Shown here piece after piece: positions 6,336 to 64,000 of a stretch of DNA of 64,000 nt (position 1 is the stretch's first letter; each line of letters starts with the position of its first letter). The DNA lies in contig JANQRX010000011.1 of the NCBI GenBank assembly GCA_028284325.1, forward strand, positions 11,792-75,791, written 5' to 3'. This DNA is from Bauldia sp. Its GTDB lineage: Bacteria; Pseudomonadota; Alphaproteobacteria; Rhizobiales; Kaistiaceae. A model generated the notes under the pieces. That model was not told the origin of the DNA, searched no databases, and saw nothing but the letters and a program-made list of their open reading frames with translations. The translations under genes and the position numbers were made by a program.

Positions 6336-6607
6336 TACTGCGGACCGCCGCGGCCGAGGTTGAGGATTCTGAGCACCAGCCACACGGGCACGACGATCAC
6401 GGCGCCGAGCAGCAGGTAGCGCCACATCCATTCGAAGGCGCCGAAGCCGAGATTGTAGATTCGCTCCAGGAGCTCGGTGAACGAGGCCACCAGGTCGTAG
6501 GGCGACAGACCAAGGGCGCTGAGGACCACGCCGACCACGAAGGAGATGATCACCAGACGCAGGAAGATCGTCAGCGGCGGGCCGCCGAGAAAACGGTTGA
6601 GCGTCAT
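6332..6607 (-). CDS. small integral membrane protein (2 TM), function unknown
   Basis: ATG at 6607 (MTLNRFLGGPP...). 91 aa with two hydrophobic helices. Convergent 4-nt overlap with the pyrD stop. Confidence 0.55.
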   Translation of the reverse strand: MTLNRFLGGPPLTIFLRLVIISFVVGVVLSALGLSPYDLVASFTELLERIYNLGFGAFEWMWRYLLLGAVIVVPVWLVLRILNLGRGGPQY

Positions 6608-7188: not shown

Positions 7189-7263
7189 GCGGGTGTAGTT
7201 CAGTGGTAGAACGACAGCTTCCCAAGCTGTATGTCGTCGGTTCGATTCCGATCACCCGCTCCA
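7189..7263 (+). tRNA. tRNA-Gly (anticodon CCC)
   Basis: Folded by hand. Acceptor GCGGGTG/CACCCGC, D-arm GTTC-AGTGGTA-GAAC, anticodon arm ACAGC-TTCCCAA-GCTGT, T-arm GTCGG-TTCGATT-CCGAT, encoded CCA. 75 nt. Confidence 0.93.
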
Positions 7264-7346: not shown

Positions 7347-8084
7347 CTACGTGCTCCCGGACATGTTCGACGCGGTGATGGCCGCCAAGGTCGAGCCGAT
7401 CCTGTCCACCTCACCGGAACCACTGGCGAACAGAACGGTCGATATGGCCGCATCCAGCCTCTGATTGGCGCGCCTGAAGGGAACCGCGACCTCCAGCGTA
7501 CGGTCGTGATCGTCACCGCCAAAGAGGGCATAACCGGCCTTTCGCTGACGGGTCAGGCGCTCGTCGAGTTCACGCTGTTTCACGTCATCCAGGCCCTCGA
7601 CCAGCAGGTCGACCTCGTAGCGCGGCATGGCGCCGATCATCGCCACACCGGGAGCGGTGTCCCACAGATTCATCCTGCTCCCGATCGGCGACGACATGGT
7701 GACCCGGTCGCCCGACGCCACATTGAACACCGTGACGGCGAAGTTGCCCGAGCGGACGGACAGGAGTGATGAGTGGCCGGTTTCCTTGACGATCCGCGCC
7801 ATCAAGGGCGCCGATGATTCGATCAGATGCTGTGTCGACGGCGCGTCCGACGCTATGCGAAAGAGCTTGTCGCCGAGCACCACCTTCTCCTGGTCGCCCA
7901 CGCGCACAACATAGCCGCGTTCGACCAGCCGGTTGAGGACGCGATAAAGCTCGCCCCGCGTCCGCCCCAGCGCGCGCGAAATATCGTAGATCGAAAGCGG
8001 ATCGTCAGACGCCGCCATCAACTCGAGAACGTCCAGCCCCTTGTCGAGCGCGGGCGCGTTCGATTTCCTGCTAGCTTCCGTCAT
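7347..8084 (-). CDS. IclR family transcriptional regulator
   Basis: ATG at 8084 (MTEASRKSNAPALDKGLDVLELM...). N-terminal wHTH DISRALGRTRGELYRVLNRLVERGYV plus a C-terminal IclR effector-domain-like region. Confidence 0.85.
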   Translation of the reverse strand: MTEASRKSNAPALDKGLDVLELMAASDDPLSIYDISRALGRTRGELYRVLNRLVERGYVVRVGDQEKVVLGDKLFRIASDAPSTQHLIESSAPLMARIVKETGHSSLLSVRSGNFAVTVFNVASGDRVTMSSPIGSRMNLWDTAPGVAMIGAMPRYEVDLLVEGLDDVKQRELDERLTRQRKAGYALFGGDDHDRTLEVAVPFRRANQRLDAAISTVLFASGSGEVDRIGSTLAAITASNMSGST

Positions 8085-11885: not shown

Positions 11886-12995
11886 TTAAATCACCTCCAG
11901 GTAATCGCGATGGGGCAGTTCCGGGAACGGCGCGGTCGGCAACGTCTGGTACCAGAATGACGTCGAGGCGATGTCGTCCTGCAGGGGCAGATACCGCCGC
12001 TCGTTCAGTTCGGTTCGCCAGCCGAGGGCCTGGATGGTGACCCGCAACCGTTCGCGGAAGCGGATCGGGTCCGTGACGTGCCAGCGGTACATGCCGAACC
12101 GCTGCTGCGACGCATAGGCGCCGTCCGGACGAATGATCTGATGTAAACCGCTATACGGCGTCGTGAACGACGTGTAGGCGCGGGGCATGGTGTCTTCGCA
12201 CGTGCCTATGTCGAAGTTGTGCGACCCGCAGAAATAGTCTTCCGTGCCCGTGCCGCAAATCGTCGGATAGGCATCGTCATCATCGAGGAAGAACTTGATC
12301 TCGCCTTCGCCCCACCAGCCCGAATTGTTGACCCCCCAGGCGACGTAGGTCCCGACAAATTGACCCTGACCGACAATGCCGTCGAGGAGCGTGTGGTCGG
12401 TCTTGTAGGGAACCGGATTGGTACGGCGGAACTGCGCGTGGAAATATGCGCACTGTTCGGGAACATCGGCCAGCGCGTAGTTGATCTGATAGTAGACCGT
12501 GGTGTCCTCTTCGTCCCGGTTCTGCAACGTCAGCCGTGCACGCTTGCGGAACGGCATCTCCCAATAGCAATTGAAGCCGCGCGCCGGGTTCACGCACACT
12601 GCCAGGGACGACACCTGGGCAAACCGCTCCCAACCGCTGCAGAAGAAGTCGCCGATCGGGGCCTCAACGGATGGATGCTCCTGATCGTCCCAGTAGATTC
12701 GCAGGATCAGGTCGCGGAGCTTCGCGTTGCCCAGGCAGGTGATCCAGATCTGCTGAATGGCTCCCTGTCCGCTGATGTCGGCAAGCTCGGCCGTTTCGCC
12801 GGGAAGGAGTTCGATCGAAGGCGAAATCTTCCACCCCTGGCCCAAATCGCGGGCGGGGCGCGCGCCTGTCCCCTCTGTGGCGCGGCCACCGCCGCCCACC
12901 TCGCCGTGCGGATTTTCCGGCGAGATCGATCGGGATTCTGCCGTCGAAAGCTGCGACAGATTTCCTATGTGCGTTCCAAGTCCGTCGAATGACAT
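11886..12995 (-). CDS. DUF2961 / glycoside hydrolase family 172-like protein
   Basis: 369 aa. The jelly-roll-type motif WGEGEIKFFLDDD...CGTGTEDYFCG is the DUF2961 hallmark as I recall it. No signal peptide. Confidence 0.75.
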   Translation of the reverse strand: MSFDGLGTHIGNLSQLSTAESRSISPENPHGEVGGGGRATEGTGARPARDLGQGWKISPSIELLPGETAELADISGQGAIQQIWITCLGNAKLRDLILRIYWDDQEHPSVEAPIGDFFCSGWERFAQVSSLAVCVNPARGFNCYWEMPFRKRARLTLQNRDEEDTTVYYQINYALADVPEQCAYFHAQFRRTNPVPYKTDHTLLDGIVGQGQFVGTYVAWGVNNSGWWGEGEIKFFLDDDDAYPTICGTGTEDYFCGSHNFDIGTCEDTMPRAYTSFTTPYSGLHQIIRPDGAYASQQRFGMYRWHVTDPIRFRERLRVTIQALGWRTELNERRYLPLQDDIASTSFWYQTLPTAPFPELPHRDYLEVI

Positions 12996-60058: not shown

Positions 60059-60553
60059 ATGGCGACGGGCGAGGACAGCGCGGCGGCTCGCTTCGCCGAC
60101 ATCGCCGCGACGGAGGAGTCGGGACAGATCTTCGCGGCGCTCGACCGGATGGCGCAGGATCTTGTCGGCGCCCGGCTGGTGTCGTGCTCCGTGTTCGACG
60201 AAGCCACATGGCAGGCGCGGCGCGTCTACACCAACAACCCGGACGTCTATCCGCTGTCCGGCCTGAAGGCCGTCACGCCCAGCCGGTGGACTGAGACCGT
60301 GCTCGACAACGGGCAGATCTTCGTCGCCAACTCCATCGACGAGATCGCCGAGGTCTTCCCCGACCACCCGACCATTGCTGGGCTCGGCCTGGGCGCGGCC
60401 ATGAACCTTCCCGTCCGGCTTGCCGGCGCGTTTCTGGGCACCGTCAATCTGCTGGACAAACCCGGCGCCTACGGCCCGGATCAGCTCGAGGCGGCCAAGG
60501 ACCTCCGCCTTCCTGCGATCGCCGCCTTCTGCAGCCTGCATCACGGCGGGTGA
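60059..60553 (+). CDS. GAF domain-containing protein
   Basis: 164 aa. Starts 1 nt after the M24 stop. The fold assignment comes from general resemblance to small stand-alone GAF proteins (...LNLPVRLAGAFLGTVNLLD...), so confidence is moderate. Confidence 0.6.
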   Translation: MATGEDSAAARFADIAATEESGQIFAALDRMAQDLVGARLVSCSVFDEATWQARRVYTNNPDVYPLSGLKAVTPSRWTETVLDNGQIFVANSIDEIAEVFPDHPTIAGLGLGAAMNLPVRLAGAFLGTVNLLDKPGAYGPDQLEAAKDLRLPAIAAFCSLHHGG

Positions 60554-60561
60554 CCGCGACG

Positions 60562-60648
60562 CCCTACCGGTCGAACGGTGCGACCGTGACGCGTCGGCTG
60601 AGGAGGAAGGCGTCGGCCACATGGGCGAGCGGCTACAGATCCATGTCG
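60562..60648 (-). repeat. direct repeat copy A: displaced, decayed 3' end of the dehydrogenase gene
   Basis: 87 nt, 76/87 identical to 62150-62236. On the minus strand it reads DMDL*PLAHVADAFLLSRRVTVAPFDR*. The live gene end reads DMDLSPLAHVADAFLLGRRLTAAPFNW*. Confidence 0.9.
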
Positions 60649-62149
60649 CTGCCCGTCAACCGATCATGCGAAGGGCCGCTCCCTCGACTTCGTCCGTCCG
60701 CCTTGTCCAGCCCCTGCCGAACGTTTCCCAGGTCTTGAGCGAGCGGTAGTAGTCCATGCGAAGCTGGCTGAATCGGCGAACGACCCATGACGCATCGAGA
60801 CTGTCGACCGCGCCGACGGTGATCGGGCCGATCACGCCATCGGCATTGGCACCGCAAACGCGCTGAAGCAGCTTCGCAGATCGGCCCGGGCCGGCGTTGA
60901 CGCCGAAGTCGAACGTCACGAGATCGACGCCGTGCGGGAGGCTATCGCAGTTGAGCGGCTTCCAATACCTGGCCTCGTAGATGTTCCGCGCTTCTTCCTC
61001 GGTCAGGTCCTTCACGTCCTGCTTGGTGATGGCGGTACCGCGCCAGTCTTTCAGCGTGTTGAAGGTGATACCCATATTGGTGGCGCCGCCGGGATCGTTC
61101 GGGTGATCGACATAGCCGCCCTCCTTTTCCAGGATGATGGCGACACAACGCTTGAAGTTCGACGGTTTTGGCTGCTCGGGGACCGGCTCGACCCGGACTG
61201 ACCTTTCCTTGAGAATCGCCTCCGTCTGCTCCGCCTGGCGCTCGATGATTCTCGCCGACTCGCTGGCGGTCTTGGCCTGTATCTCGACGGCCGCGAAATC
61301 CTTGTTGCGTGAGCCCTGCGACGACCCGAGCCAGAAGCTGATCACGGTGGCGAAACCCGCGGTCAGCGCACCGATGGCGATGTTGACGATCTGCGAGACT
61401 TCTTTGACGAGTTCATTGGTCGACGGGTTGAACCAATTGCTGACCAGAACAGCGAGAATCCAGAAGAAGCCGACAGAGACGACCAGCGAGATGACGACCG
61501 GCCCCCAGGCAAAGGGATTGCGAGCCCTCGCCAAGTCAGCGAAGCTCGTCCGCGCGGCTTGCGTGTCCGCGATTTCCGCCTGGAACTTACGGAAATCGTC
61601 GTCCCGCAGTTTCGCGTCCTCCTCAAACCGCAGTCGCATCGCCTCCATTTCGGCTTTGCGCTGTGCCTCAGCCTGCTCGATCTGCAGTTTCTGCTCGGCG
61701 AGTTCGTGCTCGCGACGCTTTTGCTCTTCTTCCGCCGCTATTTCGGCAAGCTTGATTTTCAGTTCCTTCTCCGCGGCCGGATCGCTCTCGATCTTCTTCT
61801 GTGCGTCGGCCGGAACGGATGTTCCGGCAGCGTTGCTCACCGCTTTTGTCACGGCATCGACAACACCTGCGGAATCGCCGCCTATGACGGCTTTCAAGAT
61901 GTCCGGAAAAACCGACGCCGCGATCGCGACCAACGGATTCATGATGCCGCCCTCCCAAATACAATCTTGGGTTGACAGTAGTTAAAGTTGTGGCGGCGTG
62001 CAACCGTACGTGCCCCTTGGCTGGAGCGGCGGTTCGGATTGCGATCGACCGTTGCGCTTGGGCGTCGGACGACCCTTCGGGCCGGGGTGTGGCCAGGAGC
62101 GACCGACACCGTCCGTAGCGGAAACGGGCCCGCAGGCCCTACACCGACT
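60649..62149. mobile_element. 1.5-kb single-gene cassette between 87-bp direct repeats (no recombinase)
   Basis: Lies between repeat copies A and B. Contains only the holin-like/GH108 gene plus about 200 nt of upstream DNA. GC is lower than the flanks (48-63% on lines I counted). Confidence 0.45.
60656..61942 (-). CDS. fusion protein: holin-like N-terminal membrane/coiled-coil module + GH108 N-acetylmuramidase + PG_binding_3
   Basis: 428 aa. The N-terminal module is a Gly/Ala amphipathic head, a Glu/Lys/Gln coiled coil, and TM helices WGPVVISLVVSVGFFWILAVLV and IVNIAIGALTAGFATVISFWLG. The C-terminal part has the GH108 signature ILEKEGGYVDHPNDPGGATNMGIT followed by DGVIGPITVGAV, a peptidoglycan-binding region. 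RBS GGGAGGG. Confidence 0.8.
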   Translation of the reverse strand: MNPLVAIAASVFPDILKAVIGGDSAGVVDAVTKAVSNAAGTSVPADAQKKIESDPAAEKELKIKLAEIAAEEEQKRREHELAEQKLQIEQAEAQRKAEMEAMRLRFEEDAKLRDDDFRKFQAEIADTQAARTSFADLARARNPFAWGPVVISLVVSVGFFWILAVLVSNWFNPSTNELVKEVSQIVNIAIGALTAGFATVISFWLGSSQGSRNKDFAAVEIQAKTASESARIIERQAEQTEAILKERSVRVEPVPEQPKPSNFKRCVAIILEKEGGYVDHPNDPGGATNMGITFNTLKDWRGTAITKQDVKDLTEEEARNIYEARYWKPLNCDSLPHGVDLVTFDFGVNAGPGRSAKLLQRVCGANADGVIGPITVGAVDSLDASWVVRRFSQLRMDYYRSLKTWETFGRGWTRRTDEVEGAALRMIG

Positions 62150-62236
62150 CCCTACCAGTTGAACGGTGCGGCCGTGAGGCGGCGGCCGAGCAGGAAGGCG
62201 TCGGCCACATGGGCGAGTGGCGAGAGGTCCATGTCG
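62150..62236 (-). repeat. direct repeat copy B (functional 3' end of the dehydrogenase gene)
   Basis: See copy A. It includes the stop codon and 2 nt beyond it. Confidence 0.9.
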
Positions 62237-63090
62237 ATCCCCCCGGCGTGGACCAGCGCCGCCATCCGGGCATAGAGCCGCGGATACTCGCCCTGCAGCG
62301 CGTCGTCGCCGGCGGGCGCGGCCTGGACGTCGCCGTCGATCGCGAGTTTCGCCCCGCCCTCGGACAACAGCATGTAGCCGCCATTGGTCTCGGCCTCGAT
62401 GGTCCAGGTCTGGTCGCCCTCCTGGCGCCAGTCGAACGCGGCCGAGATGTCGGCGCCGTGCGGATGCGCGAAGGCAAGCGAGGCGGCGATGGGCGTCTCG
62501 CAATTCTCGGGGAACTCCAGCGTCGCCGCGGTCAGCCGGATCGGATCGGGCAGGATCCTGGTCACGATCGACAGCGCGTTGATGCCGGGATCGAAGACGC
62601 CGACGCCGCCGGCCTGCCAGATCCATTCCTGCCCCGGATGCCAGCGGCGCACGTCCTCCTTCCAGACGACCTTCAGCGACCGCAGATGCTTGTCCGCAAG
62701 CCAGGCCCTCGCCGCCTCGACCTGGGCGGCCTCACGCGAATGCCAGGTGGCGTAGATCGAAACGCCGGCCGCCCGTGCCATCGCCTCAAGCTGTTGGCAT
62801 TCGGACAGTGTCGCGCCGGGCGGCTTCTCCAGCATCACATGGCGGCCGGCCTGCAGCGCCGCTGCGGCGTAGTCGAAGCGCGGCACCGGCGGCATGCACA
62901 GGGACACGACCTCGACATCCGGACGGGCGGCCAGGAAGGTGTCCAGATCGGTGAAAGCCTCCACGCCGTCGACGCGGCCGTGGCGGGAAACCGTCGCCGC
63001 CAGCTCCCAGTCCGGCGACGCAGCGATGCTCGGCACGTGCTGATCGTGGGCAATCTTGCCGATACCGGCAAGGGCGATCTTCCGCGTCAT
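62152..63090 (-). CDS. Gfo/Idh/MocA family oxidoreductase (D-galactose/L-arabinose 1-dehydrogenase-like)
   Basis: ATG at 63090 (MTRKIALAGIGKIAHDQHVP) within ORF 62152..63693. LEKPP motif. 312 aa. Confidence 0.85.
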   Translation of the reverse strand: MTRKIALAGIGKIAHDQHVPSIAASPDWELAATVSRHGRVDGVEAFTDLDTFLAARPDVEVVSLCMPPVPRFDYAAAALQAGRHVMLEKPPGATLSECQQLEAMARAAGVSIYATWHSREAAQVEAARAWLADKHLRSLKVVWKEDVRRWHPGQEWIWQAGGVGVFDPGINALSIVTRILPDPIRLTAATLEFPENCETPIAASLAFAHPHGADISAAFDWRQEGDQTWTIEAETNGGYMLLSEGGAKLAIDGDVQAAPAGDDALQGEYPRLYARMAALVHAGGIDMDLSPLAHVADAFLLGRRLTAAPFNW

Positions 63091-63104
63091 CGGTGTTTCG
63101 TCCC

Positions 63105-64000
63105 TCAGAAGTGCCGGGGCGGCTCCGGCCTGTTGTCGACCACGGCTTCGATGGCCTCGGCCAGATCGTCGGTGAAACGGTCGCGCGCATCGAGGGCCGC
63201 AAGGTTGTCCTGGAGCTGCTCGAGGCGCGAGGCGCCGAGGATGACGGTCGAGACGTGCGGATTGCGCAGACACCACAGCAGCGCCATGTGGTGCAGCGGC
63301 AGGCCCGCGTCGTCGGCCAGCTTGGCGAGTTTCGCGACGATCGCCAGCCTGAGCCGCCCTTCCTCCGACTCCCAGCGCTCCTTCAGCCATTCGTAGCCCG
63401 GCAGGTTCATGCGGCTGTCGGCAGGCACGCCGTCGGCGTACTTGTTGGTGAGCACGCCGGAGGCGAGCGGCGACCAGATGGTGGTGCCGAGACCGACGAG
63501 GTCGTAGAGCGGCAGGTAGTCGCCCTCGACCTTGGTCCGTTCGAACAGATTGTACTCCGGCTGCTCCATCGTCGGCGGCGTCAGGCCGTTGGCGCGGGCA
63601 AAGCCCCAGGCCTCGGTGATCTGCTGCGCCGACCATTCCGACGTGCCCCAATAGAGGACCTTCCCCTGCGTCACCAGGTTGTGCATCGCCCACACGGTCT
63701 CTTCGATCGGCGTGTCGATGTCGGGCCGGTGGCAGAAGTAGAGGTCGAGGTAATCGACCTCCAGCCGCCGCAGCCCGGCGTGGCAGGCGTCGGTGATGTG
63801 CTTGCGCGACAGGCCCCGGTTCATCGGCCCCCGGCCGCCGAAGAACACCTTGGTCGACACGGCATAGGTATCGCGCGGCCAGGCCAGGCGCTTCAGTGCC
63901 TCGCCCATGACCTTTTCGGCGTTGCCCGCCTCGTAGCCCTCGGCGTTGTCGAAGAAATTGACGCCGCCATCATAGGCTTCGGCCATCATCGAGGTCGCCA
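63105..64000 (-). CDS. aldo/keto reductase (Kv-beta-like), 5' end beyond window
   Basis: Motifs FDNAEGY, LDLYFCHRPD and VSTVILGASR. The reading frame is still open at position 64000. Confidence 0.88.
   Translation of the reverse strand, partial: ATSMMAEAYDGGVNFFDNAEGYEAGNAEKVMGEALKRLAWPRDTYAVSTKVFFGGRGPMNRGLSRKHITDACHAGLRRLEVDYLDLYFCHRPDIDTPIEETVWAMHNLVTQGKVLYWGTSEWSAQQITEAWGFARANGLTPPTMEQPEYNLFERTKVEGDYLPLYDLVGLGTTIWSPLASGVLTNKYADGVPADSRMNLPGYEWLKERWESEEGRLRLAIVAKLAKLADDAGLPLHHMALLWCLRNPHVSTVILGASRLEQLQDNLAALDARDRFTDDLAEAIEAVVDNRPEPPRHF

Follow-up and report, generated by a model that had tools for sequence, protein, structure and literature searches.

How does a single gene come to lie between two copies of the 3' end of its neighbour, when no recombinase is encoded beside it? 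The question is raised by a 64,000-nucleotide (nt) stretch of the Bauldia sp. genome (contig JANQRX010000011.1, positions 11,792 to 75,791; hereafter the window), in which a gene for a membrane-anchored muramidase with a GH108 domain, here called the cargo gene, is bracketed by a direct repeat of the end of a Gfo/Idh/MocA dehydrogenase gene. A similar arrangement recurs around a homologous gene at rpoD in a second bacterium. We give about an even chance to the explanation that the window holds a small recombinase-free cassette of ~1.59 kb which entered the chromosome by a Campbell-type crossover, rather than the stump of a prophage. The features at issue are:

60557 to 60654, minus strand: copy A of the repeat, a displaced, dead dehydrogenase 3' end with the frame and terminal stop position of copy B
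60605 to 60629, no strand assigned: the 25-nt identical block in copy A, partner of the block at 62193 to 62217
60656 to 61942, minus strand: the cargo gene, coding for a membrane-anchored GH108 muramidase of 428 amino acids (aa), the only gene between the repeats
62145 to 62242, minus strand: copy B, the live 3' end of the Gfo/Idh/MocA dehydrogenase gene, in frame with it, its residues L31 and A33 being atypical relative to 120 orthologs
62193 to 62217, no strand assigned: the 25-nt identical block in copy B, the putative crossover zone
62152 to 63093, minus strand: the target gene, a Gfo/Idh/MocA dehydrogenase of 313 aa, homologs of which are, in some sources, D-galactose or L-arabinose 1-dehydrogenases

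An earlier note on this DNA had described an 87-bp direct repeat (60562-60648 and 62150-62236) with 76/87 identical positions, and the same 11 mismatches were counted here. When followed outwards without gaps, the repeat reaches 98 nt (60557-60654 and 62145-62242; 84/98 identical, 86%) at a spacing of 1588 nt, and it scores 114 bits in a self-comparison with BLAST, where 40 shuffles of 58-64 kb that preserved the composition gave 31 bits at most. Within the repeat, the block at 60605-60629 and 62193-62217 is identical at 25/25 positions, while its flanks differ by ~20%; even with up to three mismatches allowed, this 25-nt core occurs only twice in the window, with no occurrence expected (100 shuffles). 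An independent Logan assembly of the same organism (L081, SRR20820731) has the identical structure, which rules out an assembly artefact. No significant secondary structure and no Rfam match was found for the repeats. A dispersed family similar to repetitive extragenic palindromic (REP) sequences, which the note had named as a possible refutation, was rejected, the repeat being unique within the 64-kb window.

The two copies have different fates, as the note had proposed. Copy B, comprising 1 base of the preceding codon, the last 29 sense codons, the TAG stop (62152-62154) and 7 nt past it, is the in-frame, live end of the dehydrogenase gene. Copy A is a displaced relic in which the seventh codon has changed from TCG to an internal TAG and six further codons specify other amino acids, including I to S and, at a nearly invariant glycine, G to S; it begins 1 nt past the stop of the GH108 gene and ends 3 nt short of that of a convergent GAF-domain gene. 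The 14 mismatches of the 98-nt repeat are of mixed types (6 synonymous and 7 non-synonymous differences between the copies). A diversity-generating retroelement was therefore rejected, since the mismatches are not confined to adenines, no reverse transcriptase is present and the gene between the repeats codes for a GH108 protein.

The payload is as small as had been claimed: the single lysis-type gene of 428 codons and a 202-nt spacer. The cargo gene is foreign in composition, with a GC content of 57-63% against 68-71% in both flanks, and genes of its family have a lower GC than their host in three contexts. The statement that no recombinase is encoded between the repeats or nearby also holds: none was found between them, in the 15 kb to their left, where only metabolic and transport proteins are encoded, or in the 3 kb to their right, where assembly L081 supplies an aldo/keto reductase and LigA. 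A phmmer search with a tyrosine integrase as query gave no match in the window.

The second case is the one in which the direction of the event can be read. A Hyphomicrobiales metagenome contig (L083) carries a homolog, P0004, 62% identical to the cargo protein, whose gene follows the dnaG-rpoD operon at a distance of 314 nt; 2 nt past the P0004 stop codon stands a second copy of the last 160 nt of rpoD, and three separate assemblies agree on this. Over their first 124 nt, the two copies of the rpoD end differ at 2 positions and by a 24-nt insert in the downstream copy (L083 6034-6057, GAGCCTGCCCCGGACTTGATCCGG), which forms a perfect 7-bp hairpin, introduces an in-frame TGA and, among 264 loci, is present only in L083, L084 and L086. 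Over their last 36 nt there are 13 differences, of which 13/13 are synonymous. Because the same 12 residues are encoded in spite of these differences, the two tails descend from two different functional rpoD genes, and therefore not from duplication in situ followed by decay.

For the L083 rpoD gene, L259 (91% amino-acid identity) and L260 (Rhodobiaceae, 84%), the two nearest relatives, were taken as outgroups, and both lack a GH108 gene downstream of rpoD. Differences from L260 number 3/36 in the displaced tail and 11/36 in the live tail; at the site CTG-A-GG, the A is common to the displaced copy and both relatives, and the live copy has C. Judged by these outgroups, the displaced copy is the native rpoD end and the live rpoD gene now ends in imported DNA, which is the product expected of one crossover with a circle made up of gene-end copy, spacer and cargo. 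This polarity lends support to the earlier claim that the window bears the footprint of an element that integrates into a gene end and brings a surrogate for it. Codon usage had pointed to the relic tail as the foreign one in L083, a reading overturned by the outgroups, the rare codons being native to the rpoD tail of this lineage. In both cases the upstream part of the relic, which the cassette explanation would ascribe to the element, carries a defect that introduces a stop, the TAG in the window and the hairpin insert with its TGA in L083. No motif common to the two repeat pairs rises above chance (score 15-18, null mean 16.7), which argues that the targets are defined by homology to each gene and not by a common recombinase site. 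An integrative mobile element exploiting XerCD (IMEX) at a dif site was likewise rejected, the repeats being coding 3' ends of two unrelated genes, unlike 28-bp dif-like sites, with no common motif above chance.

The L083 tails also bear on an account in which the target was duplicated in situ at insertion, as a very long target-site duplication, and the unused copy then decayed. In the window, neutral decay of copy A together with synonymous drift of copy B could yield both the 6 synonymous and the 7 non-synonymous differences, and the presence of L18 and A34, both rare, in the two copies would fit as well. At L083, however, duplication in situ is refuted by the wholly synonymous tail differences, one copy matching its lineage and the other not, and a perfect 25-nt core within ~20% divergence is unexpected from uniform decay; moreover, we know of no transposition mechanism that gives duplications of 98-160 bp ending at a stop codon. 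We regard this account as very improbable. A transposon or insertion sequence was rejected outright, given the 98-160-nt length of the duplication, the two different alleles at L083, the lack of terminal inverted repeats in a repeat scan and the lack of a transposase.

In the window, the corresponding polarity has to be judged against more distant relatives. The dehydrogenase orthologs differ from the 25-nt core at 5-10 of 25 positions; because they diverge there, and the flanks differ by ~20%, the identity of the core reflects recombination exchange and not conservation. Among the 120 orthologs compared, the consensus residues V31 and V33 are kept by the relic and replaced by L31 and A33 in the live tail, A33 being unique to it, and the relic residues S28 and R38 occur in no ortholog, so that each tail has two atypical residues; L18 and A34, as noted, are rare residues common to the two copies. 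On the upstream side, the summed nucleotide distances make the relic the more derived copy (215 vs 188). An imported live end and a native tail in copy A are consistent with these comparisons and are not proven by them, because the nearest dehydrogenase orthologs are only ~80% identical and stand in a different gene context. On the model of L083, the part of copy B between core and stop would then be the imported surrogate end.

A recombinase-free cassette would account for both loci as follows. The incoming unit would have consisted of a copy of the last ~90 nt of the dehydrogenase gene, the 200-nt spacer and the muramidase gene, with no recombinase encoded; it was probably the cassette itself, and not a larger element that was later trimmed, and it probably passed through a circular intermediate. 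One reciprocal crossover between its dehydrogenase-end copy and the chromosomal dehydrogenase gene, in or beside the 25-nt block, would leave that gene intact with an imported end, and the original end would be stranded 1.6 kb downstream, after the muramidase stop, where it would decay. The upstream 25 nt of copy A, with the TAG, and the stop-proximal part of copy B would be incoming DNA, and the stop-proximal part of copy A native. Host homologous recombination acting on the captured gene-end homology is the more likely agent of the exchange, an integrase supplied in trans the less likely one. The gene-end copy of the L083 element resembles the host over 124 nt (2 mismatches) and is foreign in its last 36 nt, a mosaic that fits repeated homologous exchanges and that a fixed-site integrase does not predict. 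Repeated integration and excision at varying crossover points would swap the interior of the homology with each host, whereas the terminal ~30 nt would never be exchanged, since the homology ends at the stop codon.

Such a product has the identical architecture to that of the laboratory integration of a non-replicating circle with a 3' gene fragment by a Campbell-type crossover, which likewise depends on host homologous recombination only and leaves an intact gene, the insert and a promoterless 3' fragment truncated at its 5' side; the latter, however, is an engineered procedure. To our knowledge, no natural recurring counterpart with a dedicated cargo has been described.

The same footprint could also be a stump, left by a larger element with an integrase of its own (for example a temperate phage, a genomic island or an element akin to a gene transfer agent, GTA) whose attP site, placed directly after the lysin gene, mimicked the dehydrogenase 3' end and which, once integrated by its integrase, lost all but the lysin gene through internal deletion. 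This has a classical precedent in the element e14 and phage 21, which integrate in the icd gene of Escherichia coli so that the live icd runs into the element and an icdC pseudogene is left at the far end (PMC13626634). As here, the target is a protein-coding 3' end; as at L083 and putatively in the window, the element brings a surrogate end with mainly synonymous or conservative differences, the native end persists as a displaced, directly repeated C-terminal pseudogene, and excision would recreate a chimeric but functional gene. The protein-coding target, which the earlier note had singled out as unusual, is therefore not so, e14 and phage 21 using icd alike (PMC13626634). A short identical core between diverged arms is typical of site-specific att sites, a relic 1-2 nt past the lysin stop suits a compact phage genome, and GH108 domains are common among phage endolysins.

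The precedent differs from the window in other respects. e14, a 15-kb prophage remnant, has an integrase and an excisionase of its own and undergoes site-specific excision, whereas the window element measures 1.6 kb, contains one non-recombinase gene, has no integrase nearby and belongs with a homologous cargo at a second, unrelated target with no common core. Of the marks of an e14-type element, the gene-end direct repeats were found in the window, and an imported live end with a displaced native one is seen at L083, whereas the ortholog comparison in the window is tied; a recombinase of its own by the att site, and other phage or island genes or their fossils, were not found. What is new is an e14/icd-type architecture cut down to one non-recombinase gene and recurring at different targets. 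As a stump, it would require that internal deletion had independently reduced two insertions, at different genes, to exactly one and the same gene and left no fossil in the 202- and 314-nt spacers, and the L083 mosaic of 124 host-like and 36 foreign nucleotides would go unexplained by a fixed-site integrase.

Searches of phage, plasmid and viral sequences gave no larger relative. Matches covering at least 80% of the cargo protein were found in 0/50,697 phage records and 0/72,556 plasmid records, which hold the C-terminal domain only. Among the best 80 viral contigs, the full-length gene occurs in one alone, L166, and there it is a host gene, rejected as phage-borne because a tRNA-Arg gene separates it from the prophage: the muramidase gene stands beside a tRNA-integrated prophage. 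In another viral contig, L167, the sequence ends within the cargo match, and the genes beside it give no information. Searches of viral contigs with the window core and with the imported rpoD tail gave 0 matches, so that the larger occupants of the site which the note had suggested seeking did not come to light. One candidate, L265, matches a conserved stretch of rpoD, and was rejected as host rpoD followed by a tRNA gene and a prophage, that is, host flank. On balance, a stump is possible, though doubtful in our view. Of the two origins the note had put forward, the evidence leans away from the prophage remnant and towards a unit of cassette size, and the matter is not settled.

The comparison extends to cis-mobilizable elements (CIMEs), att-flanked islands that lack recombination genes and rely on a related integrative and conjugative element (ICE), as in the elements at the fda site of Streptococcus thermophilus. 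They share with the window attL/attR-like repeats at a gene 3' end, the lack of a recombinase and a proposed movement in trans. They differ in being deletion derivatives with arbitrary leftover cargo and an att site common to the cognate ICE, whereas the window and L083 have the same cargo family at different targets, with no cognate element found in the viral contigs searched.

The spacer and the setting of the other family members bear on another origin. The spacer and the gene that borders the relic are:

61943 to 62144, minus strand: the 202-nt spacer between the live dehydrogenase end and the cargo gene, with no gene fossil and no Rfam match
60059 to 60553, plus strand: the GAF-domain gene, convergent and bordering the relic; an empty site would put its stop codon ~10 nt from that of the dehydrogenase gene

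The dehydrogenase-proximal ~140 nt of the spacer are GC-rich, with a GGGCC-N4-GGCCC hairpin at 62126-62139, and the cargo-proximal ~60 nt are AT-rich. Neither this spacer nor the 314-nt spacer of L083 contains a gene fossil, their translations having no Pfam match at E < 0.9, and the window spacer has no similarity to the spacers at other homolog loci. In the cellular and metagenome contigs that carry them, the genes for full-length homologs of the cargo stand alone, and the five closest family members have five different neighbourhoods:

window cargo gene: dehydrogenase and GAF neighbours
L083 homolog: rpoD and a small open reading frame
third member: gatA and ribonucleotide reductase
fourth member: a short-chain dehydrogenase
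fifth member: methyltransferases and a HAD hydrolase

No DNA is conserved across the cargo stop codon in the homologs, and four further loci (L246, L249, L263 and L264) have no upstream or downstream repeat by blastn or tblastx. In L249 (1540-2957), as in L250, two tandem genes for 232-aa methyltransferases stand directly upstream of the gene for the P0008 homolog, which is 48% identical.

These observations could suit a one-off capture of foreign chromosomal DNA from a relative in which a muramidase gene already lay downstream of a dehydrogenase gene, joined by homology on one side and by illegitimate or break-repair joining on the other (homology-facilitated illegitimate recombination, or copying in the course of double-strand-break repair), the native end being duplicated as a by-product. 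The ~140 GC-rich, hairpin-bearing nucleotides by the live tail resemble chromosomal DNA of an earlier high-GC host, the spacers are unrelated between loci, and most homolog loci have no repeats, as if the gene usually moved by ordinary flanking homology. It would, however, take two events that both joined within 2 nt of the cargo stop, with a duplication ending at the host stop or 7 nt past it; the relic would be wholly native, and the stop defects in the upstream parts of both relics would have to be later accidents. We hold a one-off capture to be unlikely.

Several findings weigh against the recombinase-free cassette that we favour. Only two cases with a gene-end repeat are known: neither ~25 other homolog loci (36-58% identical) nor the 68%-identical L082 has a flanking repeat by blastn or tblastx, which suggests that most copies are either old or arrived in another way, and the spacers are so unconserved between loci that they define no common element end. 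No empty site for the window was found among the 80 loci returned by a genome-contig scan with the dehydrogenase (at most 77% identity), none of them with GAF, M24 or aldo/keto reductase neighbours. In a protein search the best non-self match of the dehydrogenase reached 80%, and the matches P0122, P0124 and P0125 all lie in sugar-catabolism operons and are not syntenic. The summed nucleotide distances of the two tail sides to 31 orthologs are tied (437 vs 446) and favour neither copy as the native end in the window. An identity of 25 nt within ~20% divergence lies at the lower limit of what RecA-dependent exchange needs, and a site-specific core would more typically look like this, for which reason we hold the homology-guided cassette loosely. 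In both cases the relic follows the cargo stop by 1-2 nt, which points to a compact boundary that the element has evolved, as a phage attP beside the last gene would also give; this tight junction is unexplained by any homology-only model.

Beyond the two loci, we tentatively envisage, as a rather doubtful extension of the cassette explanation, a family of recombinase-free cassettes of 1.6-1.8 kb with a membrane-tethered muramidase as cargo and the captured 3' end of a host gene as 'attachment site'. They would move in and out by host homologous recombination, always restoring the target, even the essential rpoD, exchanging the interior of the homology and keeping their own recoded terminal codons, and would acquire new targets by capturing gene ends.

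Phages and islands that bear an integrase are well known to integrate with a surrogate gene end. If the cassette explanation is true, captured homology alone can act as a portable attachment site, here for a single-gene unit at two unrelated genes, and provides a route of horizontal gene insertion that spares even essential genes; it would also account for some of the short C-terminal 'pseudogene fragments' annotated beside orphan genes. If the element is a prophage stump, the locus is a case of ordinary, though unusually clean, prophage decay. The findings are also relevant to how lysins of phage type come to reside in Alphaproteobacteria as cell-wall enzymes, possibly domesticated ones.

The cargo protein begins with amphipathic helices, followed by a coiled coil (residues ~55-139), two membrane helices (143-167 and 182-206) and a GH108 and PG_binding_3 region (263-427). 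The match to Pfam Glyco_hydro_108 is strong (1.9e-31; 108.9 bits against a gathering cut-off of 21.2 bits), whereas that to PG_binding_3 is below the gathering cut-off. In an AlphaFold model (pLDDT 87.8), the long coiled coil and the pair of membrane helices are followed by a globular C-terminal domain, the best structural match of which is Brucella SagA (7dnp; 44% identity, TM-score 0.89, E = 8.5e-15), followed by NMB1012 and TtsA; this domain also matches the phage endolysin family phrog_315. Brucella abortus SagA, Salmonella Typhi TtsA, Neisseria NMB1012 and the GH108 endolysins of phages match the C-terminal 165 residues, and the cargo protein differs from all of them by an extra N-terminal part of 260 residues with the coiled coil and the two membrane helices. 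The N-terminal half matches phrog_1544, a family of unknown function; its matches to the holin family phrog_785 (E = 0.89) and to a GTA '3-TM holin' in BFVD (E = 0.18) are weak, and it has no Pfam holin match. Judging from homology only, the protein is probably a peptidoglycan hydrolase of the GH108 type that is tethered to the membrane and serves either in lysis or in wall remodelling.

A holin-endolysin or GTA lysis locus fits poorly, the membrane part not belonging to a holin family and the gene being solitary in cellular contexts. The endolysin-holin locus rcc00555-rcc00556 of the Rhodobacter capsulatus GTA (RcGTA) is syntenic and vertically inherited in Rhodobacterales (PMC5026251), whereas the contexts of the cargo gene vary. 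A promoter-like TTGACA-N17-TATAAT sequence stands in an AT-rich stretch just 5' of most close homologs of the cargo gene (L246 1060-1153, L263 420-511, L083 4620-4702, L082 9915-10000 and L264 1105-1193); a consensus promoter scan upstream of the cargo gene in the window gave no match.

The dehydrogenase gene adjoins genes for an aldo/keto reductase and a LigA-type protein (62152-63989), and its closest orthologs (at most 80% identical) are all embedded in sugar operons, with an ABC transporter, DHDPS and a lactonase or with DGOK and an aldolase. Because of this, the target gene may itself be a relocated or transferred copy. The only tRNA gene of the window, a tRNA-Gly(CCC) gene at 7189-7263, might conceivably border a tRNA-linked island; a phmmer search with one integrase was empty.

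Both viral contigs with host genes at their edge have provirus boundaries that include host flank. In L166 (IMG/VR UViG_2585427600_000004, 1-2650), the homolog is followed by a terminator hairpin, the tRNA-Arg(CCG) gene at 1309-1385, and a convergent tyrosine integrase gene with phage head genes, the boundary call having wrongly taken the host muramidase into the 'viral' contig. In L265 (IMGVR_UViG_3300031088_000841, 11990-12416), the provirus call includes the host rpoD 3' end, a terminator and a tRNA gene with a CAT anticodon, unrelated to the cassette. Downstream of the rpoD relic in L083, in or near small open reading frames, there is a further direct repeat of 36 nt with 97% identity (6560-6595 and 7572-7607), its second copy being cut by the contig end.

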